Of a DNA stretch of 35,217 nucleotides, positions 18,461-28,738 are shown in pieces. Made by a program: the position numbers and the translations under genes. The stretch covers positions 1 to 35,217 of the forward strand of contig JASFYO010000008.1 in assembly GCA_045047305.1 (NCBI GenBank), read 5' to 3'. The notes below the pieces were generated by a model. That model searched no databases. It was not told the DNA's origin and saw nothing but the letters and a program-made list of their open reading frames with translations. Source of the stretch: Planctomycetota bacterium. GTDB taxonomy: Bacteria > Planctomycetota > UBA1135. The first letter of the stretch is position 1; each line of letters begins with the position of its first letter.

Positions 18461-19438
18461 TTGAAACAGCGCCGTTATCCTCTGCGCTGCATGATTCGCT
18501 CCGTCGCCGCATCCATCCTTTCGCTAATTCTGATCCTTGGACTGGTAAGTTGCGGTGAACCTGCAACGACACAGCTCAGCGCAGTAGAACTCGACCACCC
18601 CTCCTTCTTGTGGGAGGTAGAAAAGGATGGTTCGCATGCATGGCTCTTCGGCACCATGCACTTCACCGATCCAGAAGTCACAACCCTAGGCCAAGAAGTG
18701 GATGACGCCATCACCGCTGCCGACGCCATCTTCACCGAGGTCGAGGAAACCCCTAGCTCCGGTGCCTTCATTTCGACGGCTGGACGTTTACCTAGCGGCG
18801 AGTCACTCAGCGATCTCGTCCCAGCAGAGCTATTGCAAAGCCTTCACGCTTATCTCCAATCGCGTGGACTTCCACCAAGCTCGATGGACCAATGGCGGCC
18901 ATGGATGGTAAGTGTGCAAATTGGACTACTCGACGCCATCCCCTTTATGTCGGATGGCCAGAAGTTAGATGTGCAACTCATGCATCGCGCTAAAAATGAG
19001 GGGAAAGAATTTGGTGCGATTGAGAAAACCGAAGATCAGTTACGCGCCCTGACTGTGGGAAGCGTTGCCGATCAAGTGCATATGCTTGGCGTCACCCTAG
19101 AGAAGCTTGTGAAGGAGCAAGCCAATGGAGCTTCCAGCCTCGCCAAGCTTCGCGACCTTTATCTGGCCGGTGACGAAGATGCGTTGTGGAAATTCGCTAT
19201 GTCAGAAACGGATTTGGATGATCCAATTCAAATCGATTGGCTGCATGCTATCTTGCAGGAGCGCAATCTGCTGATGGCGCAACGCATTCACGCGCGACTG
19301 CAGGAGTTTCCCGAAAGATCAACCTTCTTCGCATTTGGAGCCCTGCACTTCGTCGGCCCCGACAGCGTAGGCGAGCATTTGAAATCTCTGGGATACACAG
19401 TTACGCGAGTGCAGCATATCGCTCCCGCGATGGACTAA
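18461..19438 (+). CDS. TraB/GumN family lipoprotein
   Basis: Lipobox LVSC; LWEV..WLFGTMH, PWM, ERN..M and FFAFGALHFVG..V. Start may be ATG 18491. Confidence 0.85.
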   Translation: MKQRRYPLRCMIRSVAASILSLILILGLVSCGEPATTQLSAVELDHPSFLWEVEKDGSHAWLFGTMHFTDPEVTTLGQEVDDAITAADAIFTEVEETPSSGAFISTAGRLPSGESLSDLVPAELLQSLHAYLQSRGLPPSSMDQWRPWMVSVQIGLLDAIPFMSDGQKLDVQLMHRAKNEGKEFGAIEKTEDQLRALTVGSVADQVHMLGVTLEKLVKEQANGASSLAKLRDLYLAGDEDALWKFAMSETDLDDPIQIDWLHAILQERNLLMAQRIHARLQEFPERSTFFAFGALHFVGPDSVGEHLKSLGYTVTRVQHIAPAMD

Positions 19439-20607
19439 ATCAGGCTTTCCACAGCATCAGCCAGTCGGAGATACTCCGATTCCGTGTTGTAGATGTGAGC
19501 GGACAAGCGCACCACAGTGCCGAGGCCATCGGGTAGTGGGATAGCAGGAATTTGAATTCCCCACTGGTCGTGCAACTCGGCGTAAATACTGGTCTTGCGT
19601 TTTGCCACCGACTCGACTGCTGCGACCGGAACGAAAACTGAAGCCATGGTGCCTATCATCGAGTCCGGCGCCGGCAACGTGGTTGCAAAACGTTGCGCCA
19701 ACATCCTGCGCATGGAGAGCGCCAGTTCATGATTACGCTGCATGATGGCATTCCATCCCCCATCCACTAGATCCTCCATAAAATCAAGGACGTCGGCGAT
19801 GCTGCCCCACGCAGTGGGATCAAAGGTTCCGGTCCAATCGAACTCCTGTAGAAAGCGAGAACGGTTTTTAGTACTAGCGTTATAGCCATGACTGATCGTG
19901 ACTGGGTGGATTTCCTCTTGCAACTCTGGACGTACATAAAGGAAGGCGGACCCCTTCGGCGCACAAGCCCATTTATGAAGATTGCCGGTGTAGTAATCGG
20001 CCCCGATCATTTTCAAATCCAAGGGGATTTGCCCTGGTGCATGAGCGCCATCAATCAAAACGCGAATGCCTTGGGCACGCATGGCCTTAGTCACCGCCTC
20101 TACCGGCAACAACAATGCGGTTGGACTTGTGAGATGGTCGATCAAACAGAACACGGTGCGTTTGGTCACCTTTGCCATCATCGCATCGACAATTTGCTGT
20201 GAATCAGTTAATGGAAATGGCAGTTTCACCACCACCACCGTTGCGCCCCACCGCTCTGCGGCAAAATCCAATGCGTTGCGGCAGGCGTTGTATTCGTGGT
20301 CGGTGACTAAAACCTCATCGCCCTTCCTCCAGCGTTGCGAGCCAATGGCTGCATTCACTCCATGGGTGGCATTCGGGACGAAAGCTAAATCCTCCGCCGG
20401 CGCCCCTACGAAAGTGGCCAACCGCTCTCGCGAACGATCCAACAGGGCCGTGCGATGTGCCATGAAGCGCACCGGCTCACGTTCCAACTCTTGACGTAGC
20501 TCCTGCTGCCGCAATTGAATCCGTGCTGGGCACGCACCGTAAGAGCCGTGGTTCAAAAAAGTCACTTCTGGATCCAAGGTCCAATGCCGCCGATAAGGAT
20601 TCTCCAT
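19435..20607 (-). CDS. Class V PLP aminotransferase, isopenicillin-N epimerase / cysteine desulfhydrase-like
   Basis: FLNHGSYGACP, VPNAT, DHLTSPT, DGAHAPG, GNLHKW (PLP Lys) and WTGTFD; start ATG 20607 with TACACT 7 nt upstream. Confidence 0.88.
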   Translation of the reverse strand: MENPYRRHWTLDPEVTFLNHGSYGACPARIQLRQQELRQELEREPVRFMAHRTALLDRSRERLATFVGAPAEDLAFVPNATHGVNAAIGSQRWRKGDEVLVTDHEYNACRNALDFAAERWGATVVVVKLPFPLTDSQQIVDAMMAKVTKRTVFCLIDHLTSPTALLLPVEAVTKAMRAQGIRVLIDGAHAPGQIPLDLKMIGADYYTGNLHKWACAPKGSAFLYVRPELQEEIHPVTISHGYNASTKNRSRFLQEFDWTGTFDPTAWGSIADVLDFMEDLVDGGWNAIMQRNHELALSMRRMLAQRFATTLPAPDSMIGTMASVFVPVAAVESVAKRKTSIYAELHDQWGIQIPAIPLPDGLGTVVRLSAHIYNTESEYLRLADAVESLI

Positions 20608-20651
20608 AAAAACTAGTGTAGAAGCTCCGCAACATGACCTAGAATGTCTGT

Positions 20652-20999
20652 ATGAACAGACAGTCCATAATTGCCCTGTTGCCTTGGTTTGCCTTGGGTG
20701 CATGCGCCCAGCCGCAAAACTCTGGCACACAGGCTAATACTGCGCCTGAAGAGGTCGTGGTGATGCAAGCTGAGGAGGCGATGGTGCAAACCGTCAACCT
20801 CAGCGTGACTGGCATGACCTGAGGCATTGCCTGAGTGGGCAAGATAAACTCGGCGCTCGCCGCTCTACCGTGGGTAGAGGAAAGCTCAGTAGATTTCAAA
20901 AATAAAATGGCTACCGTAATCGTCAGATCTGACGACTACGATGAAGCCGCAACCATCGCAGCGATTGAAGCGCTGGACTTTGGAGTATCGGTTCTCTAA
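20652..20999 (+). CDS. HMA-domain lipoprotein with two in-frame UGA codons at the Cys positions (candidate selenoprotein, UxxxU)
   Basis: Manual translation (115 aa): MNRQSIIALLPWFALGAC AQPQNSGTQANTAPEEVVVMQAEEAMVQTVNLSVTGMT-U-GIA-U-VGKINSALAALPWVEESSVDFKNKMATVIVRSDDYDEAATIAAIEALDFGVSVL. TGA at 20820-20822 and 20832-20834, TAA stop; lipobox LGAC. Confidence 0.85.
20851..20879 (+). promoter_or_regulatory. Candidate bacterial SECIS-like hairpins
   Basis: CGGC-GCTC-GCCG (20851-20862) and perfect 7-bp CTCTACC-GTG-GGTAGAG (20863-20879), both with loops starting in G, downstream of the two UGAs. Confidence 0.4.
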
Positions 21000-21016: not shown

Positions 21017-21047
21017 AGGTCACGGCTGAAATGCTGTGGCCTTTTTT
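21017..21047 (+). terminator. Intrinsic terminator of the HMA gene
   Basis: AGGTCACGGC-TGAAAT-GCTGTGGCCT stem (with G-U pairs) followed by a T run, 17 nt after the TAA. Confidence 0.8.
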
Positions 21048-25547: not shown

Positions 25548-27020
25548 TCACTCCACGACTTCCATCGTCACGTTGGAAACTTGGCCATTCTGGATGGCCT
25601 GTAACCAAATTGCGCGATCAAAAAGCACACCAGGCAGCACCACAGGGAAATCTGCGACGCCCGCACTGTCGGATGTGGTGATCCCTGCCAAGGCTGGATT
25701 ATCCAAGAGCACGGTGACGCCAAGTTGCGCGACGGTAAACATGCCGACCCCGCTCATGCTGTAAGCGAGAAAAACGGTAGAGCTTGGGGTGCAGCGTTCC
25801 ACCACCATGGTGTCGGAAATGCCAGTGAACAGATGCGGCACCTTGAGGTACATCCCAGCGGGCACCACCTTACGCAGGGTGCGGCCGAAACATATATAGA
25901 CCTCGCCATCGAAGTCGGTGCCAATCGAACGACCAGAACCTTGCACCCCGCTCTCTGCCGAGTGGTCAGTGAAATCTGTCACCCCGTTGGTGGGGTCATA
26001 ACGGAAAGACCACAACTCCAAGCTGCAGGCATCAGAGAACATAAAACGCCCGTCCATGTTGGCCATGCTGCGCCCACGATACATCGCGCCGCCGATGATG
26101 CAGCAACGCAATGGGTTGAGATTATGCGCGTATTCATAAATGGGAAGTTCCAAGCCATTCATGTTGCAACCCACACTCGGATTGAAGCAATGCCCGCCTT
26201 CGAGAATGCGCCAACCATAATTTTCCCCACCAGGAGAATTGCCCGGCTGAAAGTGCACATACTCCCACTCGTTCTGGCCGACGTCGGCAATGTACAGGTC
26301 ACGAGTCAGGCGATCGAAAGTGAATCGCCAGGGATTACGTAGGCCGGTAGCCCAGATCTCGTCCAGAGTATTCGGGTCTCCGACGAATGGATTCGACGCG
26401 GGAATGGAATATGGTAATCCGTTGTCGACATCTAAGCGCAGAATCTTGCCGAGAAAGCTCTGAGGGTCCTGCGCAAAGTTTCCAGGGTCGCCCGTATTCC
26501 CGCCATCGCCAAGTCCGATGTAAAGAAATCCGTCTGGGCCAAACCGAATGCACCCACCGTTGTGATTTCCGAAAGGCTGGACCTGGCTGAATATATTCAC
26601 TCCAGAGGAGGCGTCGGCAAGGTCTGGGTTCGCCGATACGGTGTAGCGATCGACCCGCGTATCTCCCGCCAAGTCGGTGTAATTGAGATAGAACCAACCG
26701 TTGGTGGCGTAATCTGGATGAAAGGTCACCCCCAACAGACCTTGCTCTCCTGAAGGAATCGTCAGGTTAGAGACATCAAGAAATGGAGTGGTGAAGCGCA
26801 CTCCGTCTTTTAACAGCCAAATGCGGCCCTCCTTCTCAGCAATAAAGATGCGCTCACGATCCTCTGGCGCAAAAGTGACATCTAAGACTTGGCCCATGTT
26901 GAAGGCCACAATCTCACTGTCGAGTGGGACTTGCTCTGCGGCAAAGACTTGGCCACCAGAACAAGCAAGCAGCGTGACAAAAGCAAGACAGCAAAGGTGA
27001 GGCAAGGTATGGATTCTCAT
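25548..27020 (-). CDS. PQQ-dependent sugar dehydrogenase (GSDH family), paralog 1, with C-terminal extra domain
   Basis: GEQGLLG..FHPDY, NHNGG..FGPDG.LY..GDGG, GKILR, GLRNPWR, DVGQ and NYGW. Confidence 0.88.
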   Translation of the reverse strand: MRIHTLPHLCCLAFVTLLACSGGQVFAAEQVPLDSEIVAFNMGQVLDVTFAPEDRERIFIAEKEGRIWLLKDGVRFTTPFLDVSNLTIPSGEQGLLGVTFHPDYATNGWFYLNYTDLAGDTRVDRYTVSANPDLADASSGVNIFSQVQPFGNHNGGCIRFGPDGFLYIGLGDGGNTGDPGNFAQDPQSFLGKILRLDVDNGLPYSIPASNPFVGDPNTLDEIWATGLRNPWRFTFDRLTRDLYIADVGQNEWEYVHFQPGNSPGGENYGWRILEGGHCFNPSVGCNMNGLELPIYEYAHNLNPLRCCIIGGAMYRGRSMANMDGRFMFSDACSLELWSFRYDPTNGVTDFTDHSAESGVQGSGRSIGTDFDGEVYICFGRTLRKVVPAGMYLKVPHLFTGISDTMVVERCTPSSTVFLAYSMSGVGMFTVAQLGVTVLLDNPALAGITTSDSAGVADFPVVLPGVLFDRAIWLQAIQNGQVSNVTMEVVE

Positions 27021-27090
27021 CGTAGGTTGGTCAAAGAAAGGAGGCTGAACCGAAAATTCGGAACAGCCTCAAAATGCGCAGGCTGAACCT

Positions 27091-28557
27091 TTACTCCACT
27101 GTTTCTAAGGTCACATTTGAGACCTGACCATTTTGCACGGCCTCAAGCCAAACAGTGCGGCCGAACAAAGACCCTGGGGGCACGATGGGGAACAATGCCT
27201 TGCCACTCCCATTGGAAGTGGTGGTTGCAGCAAGTGCAGGGTTATCCAGCAACACATTCGCTCCAAGCCGCCCTACCGGGAACATGCCAACGCCGGAAAA
27301 GCTAAAGGCCAAAAACACCGTTTGGTTAGGGTTGCAGCGAACAACCTCAATTGTGTCTGCCACACCAGTGAATAGGTGCGGAACCTTCAAGTACATGCCA
27401 GCAGGCACGACACGGCGTACGGTGCCGCCAGCACAAATGTACAGTTCGCCATCGAAATCCGTGCCCAGCGAGGTACCAGAACCTTGGATGCCAGATTGGC
27501 TGGTGTGATCGGTGAAGTTGGTAACACCACCACTAACGCTGTAGCGGAATGACCACAACTCCTTGCTGCAGGAGTCGGTAAAAAAGTAACGCCCATGCAT
27601 GTTGGCCATGCTGCGACCGCGGTAAGTCTCCGAACCAAGGATGCTGCAGCGAAATGGGTTGAAGGTATGCCCATACTCGTAAATCGGGAGCTCCAAACCG
27701 GCCATATTACATCCAACGCTCGGGTTAAAGCAGTGGTTGCCTTCTATGATGCGCCAACCGTAGTTACGTCCGCCAGGGTCGCCCGCTGGCTCGAAGTGCA
27801 CATACTCCCAAGCGTTTTGGCCGACGTCGGCAATGTAAAGATCCCCGGTAGCGCGATCGAAGTTGAAGCGCCATGGGTTACGCAAACCGATTGCCCAAAT
27901 CTCATCGGCGGTGTTTGGGTCGGCTACGAATGGATTGGATGGTGGAATCGAATAAGGCAATCCATGATCAACATCGAGACGCAACATCTTACCGAGCAAG
28001 TTGGTGGGGTTTTGCGCGCGGTTGCCGGGGTCGCCGCCGCTTCCACCATCTCCGGTACCGATATAGAGGTAACCGTCAGGGCCGAAACGAACACAACCAC
28101 CGTTGTGATTGGAGAAAGGCTGCGCCAAGCTGAGCACATTGACCTGGGACGCGACGTCGGCCAAGTCTGGGTTCGCGGAAACCGTAAAACGATCGACGCG
28201 AGTGTCGCCAGCATTGTTGGTGTAGTTAATGTAGAACCAACCGTTGTTCTGATAGTCCGGGTGGAAGGCAAGGCCTAGCAGGCCGCGCTCACCACTGCCA
28301 TTGGTCTGCGCGGTGATATTCAAGAAAGGAGTCGTAAGTTTGACACCGTTCTTGATGAGGTAAATGCGACCGTTCTGGTCCAGCACGAATAAACGATCAC
28401 GATCGCCTGGGGCAAAGGTAACCAAAAGTGAGTTCCCCAAACCTGTAGCTACGACCTCGGTGTCGAGAGCCACTTGTGCTTGTGCAGCATTGGGAAGCAA
28501 AAACAAGCCTATGCTTAAGGCAAGGCTGGTAAGAAGGAAATGAGGTTTAGTTTTCAT
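27091..28557 (-). CDS. PQQ-dependent sugar dehydrogenase (GSDH family), paralog 2, with C-terminal extra domain
   Basis: Same motifs as paralog 1 (GERGLLG, NHNGG, GLRNPWR, NYGW); signal peptide from ATG 28557. Confidence 0.88.
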   Translation of the reverse strand: MKTKPHFLLTSLALSIGLFLLPNAAQAQVALDTEVVATGLGNSLLVTFAPGDRDRLFVLDQNGRIYLIKNGVKLTTPFLNITAQTNGSGERGLLGLAFHPDYQNNGWFYINYTNNAGDTRVDRFTVSANPDLADVASQVNVLSLAQPFSNHNGGCVRFGPDGYLYIGTGDGGSGGDPGNRAQNPTNLLGKMLRLDVDHGLPYSIPPSNPFVADPNTADEIWAIGLRNPWRFNFDRATGDLYIADVGQNAWEYVHFEPAGDPGGRNYGWRIIEGNHCFNPSVGCNMAGLELPIYEYGHTFNPFRCSILGSETYRGRSMANMHGRYFFTDSCSKELWSFRYSVSGGVTNFTDHTSQSGIQGSGTSLGTDFDGELYICAGGTVRRVVPAGMYLKVPHLFTGVADTIEVVRCNPNQTVFLAFSFSGVGMFPVGRLGANVLLDNPALAATTTSNGSGKALFPIVPPGSLFGRTVWLEAVQNGQVSNVTLETVE

Positions 28558-28738
28558 GTCTGGAGGAACGGGTTCATGCCCAATTCCTGAGGGTCCGAAG
28601 GTAAGACAGCTATGCCCTACATAGTTCCGTGAACACAAGAAGGCACACCCTAAATTACCCGATTTTTAGGGCTTTTTCGGTAAAAAACCGCGGGCTACGG
28701 GCATATTGGCCTAAGAACGAATGCCAAGACTCCGATTG

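Follow-up and report, generated by a model that had tools for sequence, protein, structure and literature searches.

The analysed window, a stretch of 35,217 nucleotides from a Planctomycetota genome, very probably contains a real, unannotated gene for an HMA lipoprotein with two selenocysteines (Sec). Judging from the Sec machinery of the host, the conservation of the gene and the structure of its RNA, both in-frame UGA codons (UGA1 and UGA2) would be read as Sec, and we place high confidence in this sequence-based assignment. The gene represents an uncatalogued, exported family of UxxxU/UxxxC HMA proteins, which is widespread in Planctomycetota and cut at UGA by gene callers. It adds to the short list of predicted metal-binding selenoproteins, and its natural CC, UC and UU versions of a 70-residue domain offer a clean system for studying the effect of selenium at a metal site. 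Furthermore, a Sec pair a few codons apart with a SECIS element inside the coding sequence raises the general question of how bacteria manage such a combination. The features of the locus are summarized in Table 1.

Table 1. Coordinates of the features at and around the HMA lipoprotein gene in the window.
Feature	Position	Strand	Basis
Lipoprotein gene, 115 aa, HMA domain and two in-frame UGA (putative Sec)	20652..20999	+	Frame, PF00403, conservation
Predicted lipoprotein signal peptide, lipobox L15-G-A-C18 at its end	20652..20705	+	Inspection and homologs
HMA (MerP/CopZ-like) domain, beta-alpha-beta-beta-alpha-beta	20787..20996	+	Profile and predicted fold
UGA1, putative Sec57, first metal-loop ligand	20820..20822	+	TGA in 90/96 x3-spaced domains, TGY in 6
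UGA2, putative Sec61, second ligand	20832..20834	+	TGA in 27/96 domains, TGY in 69
TAGAAT -10-like box, 6 nt before ATG	20640..20645	+	Sequence; box counts in homologs and genome
Hairpin H1, candidate spacer, A-rich loop	20835..20860	+	-7.2 kcal/mol, z -1.76; lies where other members carry SECIS
Hairpin H2, candidate SECIS, 7-bp stem, GUG triloop (20870-20872)	20863..20879	+	Pairing and codon conservation
Intrinsic-terminator-like hairpin and T tract	21017..21047	+	Hairpin 21017-21042; fold z -3.0
Divergent neighbour, class V aminotransferase (outside the finding)	19435..20607	-	Pfam; start ATG 20607 probable

The gene and its product

A hidden lipoprotein frame with an LGAC signal had been claimed from the sequence alone, and the frame translates in exactly this way: an 18-residue signal ending in LGAC and a tether are followed by VNLSVTGMT-TGA-GIA-TGA-VGKIN and the remaining codons up to the TAA at 20997-20999. 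The only internal stops are the two TGAs, at residues 57 and 61. They fall at the two Cys positions, as had been proposed, with the correction that the spacing is U-x3-U, one residue more than the CxxC usual for HMA ligands. A hydrophobic signal, a lipobox Cys and signal peptidase II in the genome (PF01252 match) were found, and sequence inspection revealed the Cys closing the hydrophobic stretch in the homologs as well. A location in the cell envelope and a lipid anchor at Cys18 are predicted. The postulated completeness of the HMA domain was borne out by the PF00403 search, which yielded 35.6 bits with U read as C (cut-off 24.8), and by an AlphaFold2 model of the domain (pLDDT 93.3, 20-row alignment) with a ferredoxin-like fold and the ligand loop ahead of helix 1. 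Using Foldseek, this predicted model was placed at a TM of about 0.9 to MerP, CopZ and ATP7B domains, with 0.91 for oxidised MerP (1osd).

The TAGAAT box described before is present, while a full promoter was not called there by the sigma-70 scan. Of 17 homologous lipoprotein genes checked, 16 have such a TAnnnT box 5-7 nt ahead of the ATG; in the genome, 140 of the 1,189 long ORFs have one at this distance from their first ATG, versus 23 at a control offset. Because of these counts, a leaderless transcript of the gene is likely. Leaderless transcription looks common across the whole genome from the same counts. The presumed own terminator was recovered behind the TAA stop. An overlap with the aminotransferase gene in the ORF list is probably not real, since the probable start of the latter is preceded by its own TACACT box. 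In agreement with the expectation that gene callers would miss the gene, the public protein collection holds only a 56-aa fragment ahead of the first TGA, and a search of the protein database gave no match for the full protein. Profile searches of the protein database were dominated by multi-HMA ATPases and were uninformative.

Selenocysteine machinery of the host

The host is a marine Planctomycetota bacterium with a genome of 2.83 Mb (87.7% complete). All components that had been named for a check were found above their cut-offs: selA (464 bits), selB, selD, which itself carries an in-frame TGA, and a tRNA-Sec (selC) with UCA anticodon (75.6 bits), the sole UCA tRNA found. Global reassignment of UGA, already doubted from neighbouring genes, was rejected, as UGA terminates 405 of 1,344 long ORFs and both HMA domains of the genome's CopA are encoded with Cys codons. 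A codon-usage scan of the genome revealed 46 TGA read-through candidates. Sixteen candidate frames were compared with NCBIfam and five of the proteins also with Pfam; 14 matched selenoprotein or redox families (peroxiredoxin, MsrA, VPGUxxT, deiodinase-like, Ogt, AhpD-like, FdhA, DUF3179 and five thioredoxin-like proteins) and two matched nothing. About 15 further selenoproteins are likely encoded in this genome. One of the frames (L115; contig C56, 16000-17200, minus strand) contains two UGAs and joins a VPGUxxT thioredoxin-like domain to an MsrA-like GMSUFW motif; it matches NF041383, a known two-part selenoprotein. Two other read-through candidates, on C70 near 22510 (L127) and C82 near 35604 (L128), have coding-like codons and belong to no family, and they may be noise.

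In the relatives, selB scored above the cut-off in 58 of 61 genomes and in 14 of 15 additional ones. An in-frame TGA was present in 34 of 35 selD matches of the host's taxonomic family. The use of Sec is thus near universal in the lineage. As a consequence of its wide occurrence, selB cannot discriminate the UGA from the Cys forms of the gene.

Conservation of the two UGA codons

Each of the 8 same-genus genomes searched has kept both TGAs, with protein identities of 38-81%. The single-protein search gave two loci (L053, L054), both from Planctomycetota MAGs and with 78-80% identity. A protein search of 61 genomes matched 33 of them, 27 of 36 within the taxonomic family. With a profile, many more TGA-containing HMA domains were recovered from 301 genomes in the phylum and 201 in the order. 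The wider Planctomycetota homologs are UxxxU, UxxxC or CxxxC. A set of 96 distinct x3-spaced domains, drawn from fetched loci that are a subset of the matches, by a pattern that demanded three residues between the ligands and omitted x2-spaced domains and loci failing the filter, comprised 27 UxxxU, 63 UxxxC and 6 CxxxC. All 96 have U or C in both ligand columns, as the search pattern required. In the aligned homologs, TGA is confined to the Cys-equivalent columns. The comparison with homologs suggested by the sequence-only reading hence gave TGA or TGY at both sites and an intact frame behind them: downstream of UGA2, none of the 16 aligned genes has a stop or a frameshift; the 54 codons past it are conserved and complete the fold. 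Relative to the nearest relative, 19 synonymous versus 8 non-synonymous codon differences were counted, and 12 versus 11 to the next one. The GM of the motif is GA in 4 same-genus genes.

In a tree of 54 domains with the ligand columns masked, which rests on 70 columns only, UxxxU needs 5 changes, at least 3 of them forced by well-supported branches, and the state of the second-ligand column (Sec61) switches at least 3 times. Cys forms did not track a loss of the Sec machinery, as selA and selB were found in 5 of 5 CxxxC genomes tested. Contigs from four sequencing runs (X1-X4) were compared with the locus, X3 and X4 being more distant. A 178-nt contig of X2 that spans both TGAs is identical to the locus, and the 10 differences listed for X1 all lie away from the two TGAs. 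No RNA run was listed among the sequencing runs matching the locus.

Several multi-UGA arrangements were observed among the homologs. L061 (G246:C17), L041 and L043 comprise a protein of three HMA domains, each with a single UGA, and tandem pairs of single-UGA HMA genes. L132 (G238:C220, plus strand) encodes an exported protein in which two HMA domains follow each other, both of them UxxxU, giving four possible Sec.

Relation to known families

The best NCBIfam match was NF041115 (UxxU_metal_bind; E 2.4e-10), with 40.4 bits well below the cut-off of 95; the relatives reached 22-64.5 bits. NF041115 is described as a 'metal-binding (seleno)protein' and listed as 'putative mercuric reductase' with UxxU and 2 Sec (PMC13188914, Table 1), and the same row is given in a 2022 review (PMC9312934). 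With this two-Sec HMA family already in the selenoprotein catalogues, the rarity attributed to two Sec in one motif had been overrated. The likeness consists in an HMA-type domain with both ligands Sec, NF041115 itself also being a prediction only; the protein of the window differs by UxxxU and by carrying, beyond the 74 positions of the model, a lipoprotein signal and a tether. The main text of the 2007 Olavius paper cited by the review (PMC1976440) is without 'UxxU'; its supplement may hold the founder of NF041115. The predicted fold and the G-M-x-C motif are shared with MerP (TIGR02052; 1osd, 1afi) and CopZ/Atx1 (PF00403), and export with MerP. However, Sec stands here for both Cys, an extra residue lies between the ligands, a lipid anchor is predicted and a mer or cop operon is lacking. 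TIGR02052 scored 34.2 bits against a cut-off of 92.55, and no linked merT was found, nor any MerT in the 88%-complete genome. The protein is MerP/CopZ-like by fold and, by cut-off or motif, not a member of NF041115 or MerP.

The MerT/CopZ fusion selenoprotein NF045683 also has Sec in an HMA-type metal site, and L072, L084 and L131 are MerT-like. The protein of the window has no membrane transport domain and scored 28.7 bits against a cut-off of 375, and the three MerT-like fused relatives fell below this cut-off, too. Another Sec-containing HMA-type site is the UxxC of a P1B ATPase (PMC13188914, Table 1). Exported, paired-Sec metal-handling selenoproteins were predicted for the SAO system as well (bioRxiv 2022.07.06.499078). 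Among the 119 families in the part of the 2026 review available to us, none is UxxxU or a lipoprotein HMA (PMC13188914). The accessible text of the BSepDB paper, which finds a canonical SECIS in 87.4% of entries, makes no mention of Planctomycetota; the database itself may hold UxxxU/UxxxC members (PMC13326102). In the literature covered, which leaves most subscription papers outside, no paper was found on a UxxxU/UxxxC HMA family or on one bacterial SECIS for two close UGAs. Double-Sec HMA proteins have already been predicted, and the new part is the RNA layout.

A candidate SECIS element for two UGA codons

Two hairpins lie downstream of UGA2 (Table 1). H2 (CUCUACC-GUG-GGUAGAG, 17 nt, -8.0 kcal/mol) follows UGA1 at a distance of 47 nt and UGA2 at 35 nt, and it is nearly invariant in 16 genes. 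In these first 16 sequences 99.1% of the cells are paired, with two one-sided changes and 0 both-sided (covarying) changes; a both-sided change, U-A to C-G, was found in L180, a gene of a different family in the order. At H2 the synonymous codon identity amounts to 0.91, versus 0.47 at other conserved residues, and H2 uses CTA and GTA, which are rare codons in the genome (8% and 11%). The bacterial SECIS model describes a 3-9 nt loop (G, then G/U) on a 4-16 bp stem at 16-37 nt with -7.5 kcal/mol or less (PMC13188914). For UGA2, H2 agrees with this model in loop, stem, energy and distance. For UGA1 the distance of H2 is too long, and H1, at 22 nt, has the loop UAAAC without G; a strict scan of the gene from UGA1 found only the loop at 47 nt. 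The 3-nt loop beginning with GU and the 7-bp stem of H2 resemble the bacterial consensus (PMC13188914) and the fdhF SECIS of E. coli (PMC8659212), the differences from the consensus being the 47-nt distance and the separate hairpin that precedes. Because seven single-Sec genes of the same clade also use the hairpin at 47 nt, this spacing works, or at least is kept, for UGA1 alone. A different hairpin across UGA2, with its loop 10 nt after UGA1, was dropped from consideration, since it is not kept in homologs.

Compared with synonymous shuffles, H1 had a z below -1 in 18 of the 20 genes of the clade and in 25 of the other 28 Sec genes, and among the 6 Cys-only genes in 1; three downstream control windows reached this value in 4, 4 and 7 of 20. 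A SECIS-type loop sits on H1 in only 1 of the 20 clade genes, compared to 24 of the 28 Sec genes outside the clade and 0 of the 6 Cys-only genes. H1 is weak in the gene of the window, and its register shifts between genes. In the strict scan of all 96 domains, the 56 UxxxC domains from outside the clade had a SECIS-type loop 16-27 nt after UGA1 (chance rate 6%) in 47 cases and 28-49 nt after it (chance rate 10%) in 3, while for the 27 UxxxU domains these numbers were 3 and 23. As the clade was defined by the sequence of H2 itself, 20 of the 27 UxxxU domains are circular for the distal loop; the non-circular part is 5 of the 7 UxxxU domains outside the clade, or 7 of 7 counting by-eye cases, the other two (L132) having a bulged GGA-loop stem at 44 nt. 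The two-hairpin layout is repeated in L084, L133 and each domain of L132, and L040, L179 and L131 possess a single loop at 32-35 nt, fitting both codons. The distal loop also occurs in 3 of 6 CxxxC domains, all three from one genus; related genes do not count as independent cases. In other genes of the host genome, clear loops at 21-33 nt were found for selD, FdhA, Ogt and two thioredoxin-like genes. A genome-wide consensus did not emerge; the scan turned up no 5-bp stem with a G loop in several other candidates, and the pattern used for selD captured only 8 of 30 loci.

From these observations we propose that a monocistronic, probably leaderless mRNA would be translated with SelB and tRNA-Sec reading both UGAs. 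H2 as the SelB site for both codons is a tentative assignment, its chances falling slightly short of even. UGA2 would be served by H2 within the bacterial SECIS window, and UGA1 would be beyond this window unless H1 folds and shortens the path. Such a 'telescoping' SECIS, in which a single SelB-binding hairpin decodes two UGAs four codons apart, is an idea of which we are a little less sure still. With UGA1 in the A site, the folded spacer H1 would bring H2 within reach; four codons on, the ribosome would have opened H1 and H2 would stand at its normal distance from UGA2. Ribosomes open the mRNA roughly a dozen nucleotides in front of the A site. The upper SECIS stem of E. coli is 11 nt from the UGA (PMC8659212). 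Because a proximal SECIS would be only 6-13 nt from UGA2, which is too close, the second Sec presumably needs a distal loop. The outward shift of the loop, seen in several separate Planctomycetota lineages, would then permit the second Cys-to-Sec change. If the link between loop position and the second UGA is right, it would offer a rule for designing multi-Sec proteins and speak for wider SECIS search windows.

Genomic context and predicted function

Within the genus the gene is flanked by the divergent class V aminotransferase gene, together with a TraB-like gene, on one side and usually by an M28 peptidase gene on the other; no metal gene was found among these conserved neighbours, and there is no metal operon. 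When the larger neighbours of 23 other loci were scanned, only four loci had a metal-related gene among them: an ArsP_1 permease (L037, L039), a cation-efflux gene (L026) and a MerR-type regulator (L031). In L026, L034, L036 and L038 an exported thioredoxin-like UxxC domain is fused in front of the HMA domain, with three UGAs in L034. The order is the other way round in L180/L199, where a CxxC thioredoxin-like domain follows two double-UGA HMA domains, so that thioredoxin-like fusions occur in two domain orders. A free-standing version of the UxxC thioredoxin-like domain is encoded on contig C23 of the host's own genome. Its gene (L118; 20343-21314, minus strand) specifies an exported thioredoxin-like protein with UGPC, a helical tail and a weak Thioredoxin_7 match, and at E 1e-6 no NCBIfam family was found for it. 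L199 (935-2000 of the locus; G358:C207, plus strand) encodes an exported protein whose HMA pair is UxxxU and UxxU, with four possible Sec. Fusions to a MerT-like domain are represented by L072, L084 and L131; L084 (758-1324, plus strand) combines a CU motif in the membrane part with UxxxU in the HMA domain, giving three possible Sec. Copper-related genes of the host genome are those for CopA, PCuAC and a COX2 domain (CuA-type oxidase subunit). MerT was not found in the 88%-complete genome.

Because of the fusions and of CopA, COX2 and PCuAC in the genome, we favour an exported binder of a soft metal, with Cu(I) as the first candidate. The lipoprotein, anchored by Cys18, would hold its HMA domain outside the cytoplasm on a flexible tether, and the two selenolates would occupy the thiolate positions of MerP and CopZ. 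It would act as a periplasmic chaperone or buffer in an organism with CopA, PCuAC and a CuA-type subunit, and an exported thioredoxin-like Sec protein would keep the metal site reduced. The latter step is drawn by analogy only from the periplasmic chaperone ScoI, whose CX3C site is maintained in the reduced state by TlpA (PMC6669012). In both cases a membrane-anchored, periplasmic site with CX3C spacing would need a thioredoxin-like reductant; however, ScoI adopts the fold of thioredoxin and has His as a third ligand, instead of an HMA fold and Sec. Based on sequence and model, binding of a metal by the domain is probable; copper in particular is a tentative choice, with somewhat less than an even chance. 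The complete account, a two-Sec exported Cu(I)/soft-metal HMA lipoprotein with H2 serving both UGAs, we regard as modestly favoured.

Alternative explanations

Could the frame be a pseudogene with two nonsense changes, or the product of an assembly error? Public gene calls ending at the first TGA would fit this explanation. Nevertheless, the conservation of both TGAs throughout the genus refutes it, in line with the earlier judgement that two such mutations are unlikely; the confinement of TGA to Cys-equivalent columns and the X1 and X2 contigs also speak against it. The probability left is negligible. Incomplete or altered decoding is also very unlikely, be it poor reading of UGA2, with a 60-aa Sec-terminated main product or a selenium-dependent switch as the result, or reading of one UGA as Cys or Trp via a near-cognate tRNA. 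It would be compatible with the position of H2 beyond the 16-37 nt window for UGA1 and with the single UCA tRNA found, but the codons conserved after UGA2 complete the fold, the position of the loop follows the presence of UGA2, the sole UCA tRNA scores as tRNA-Sec and UGA often serves as a stop in this genome.

With the codons taken as Sec, the strongest rival of metal binding is a role in redox chemistry alone, and mercury capture comes next. A MerP-like surface scavenger of Hg(II) or another toxic soft metal, working through the affinity of selenium for mercury, seems improbable to us. The affinity of selenium for mercury is high, MerP is among the closest folds, MerT-like fusions exist in the wider family and two matching sequencing runs are labelled hydrothermal vent metagenome. 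On the other hand, the genome lacks a detected MerT and the locus a mer operon, the gene occupies one chromosomal place throughout the genus, unlike mobile resistance genes, and two Se atoms per Hg would be costly. The Sec pair might instead form a redox switch (diselenide/diselenol) that exchanges electrons with exported thioredoxin-like selenoproteins, on an HMA scaffold for which metal is secondary; we consider this unlikely, yet clearly less so than mercury capture. It would explain the two independent fusions with thioredoxin-like domains, a genome with many exported thioredoxin-like UxxC candidates, a genus without a metal operon at the gene and the 4 genes that no longer have the conserved Met. 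It would also suit the x3 spacing, which departs from solved HMA metal sites and counts against the metal account. However, fold and G-M-x-C motif are those of metal chaperones, the fusions to MerT-like domains and the neighbouring permease genes are signs of metal transport, and a thioredoxin partner is likewise expected for an exported metal site (PMC6669012). Binding of a soft metal thus remains our preferred reading.

Outside this locus, two tandem paralogous ORFs of 490 and 515 aa were observed on the minus strand of the window (25548-28638), which may be glucose/sorbosone dehydrogenase-type beta-propellers.
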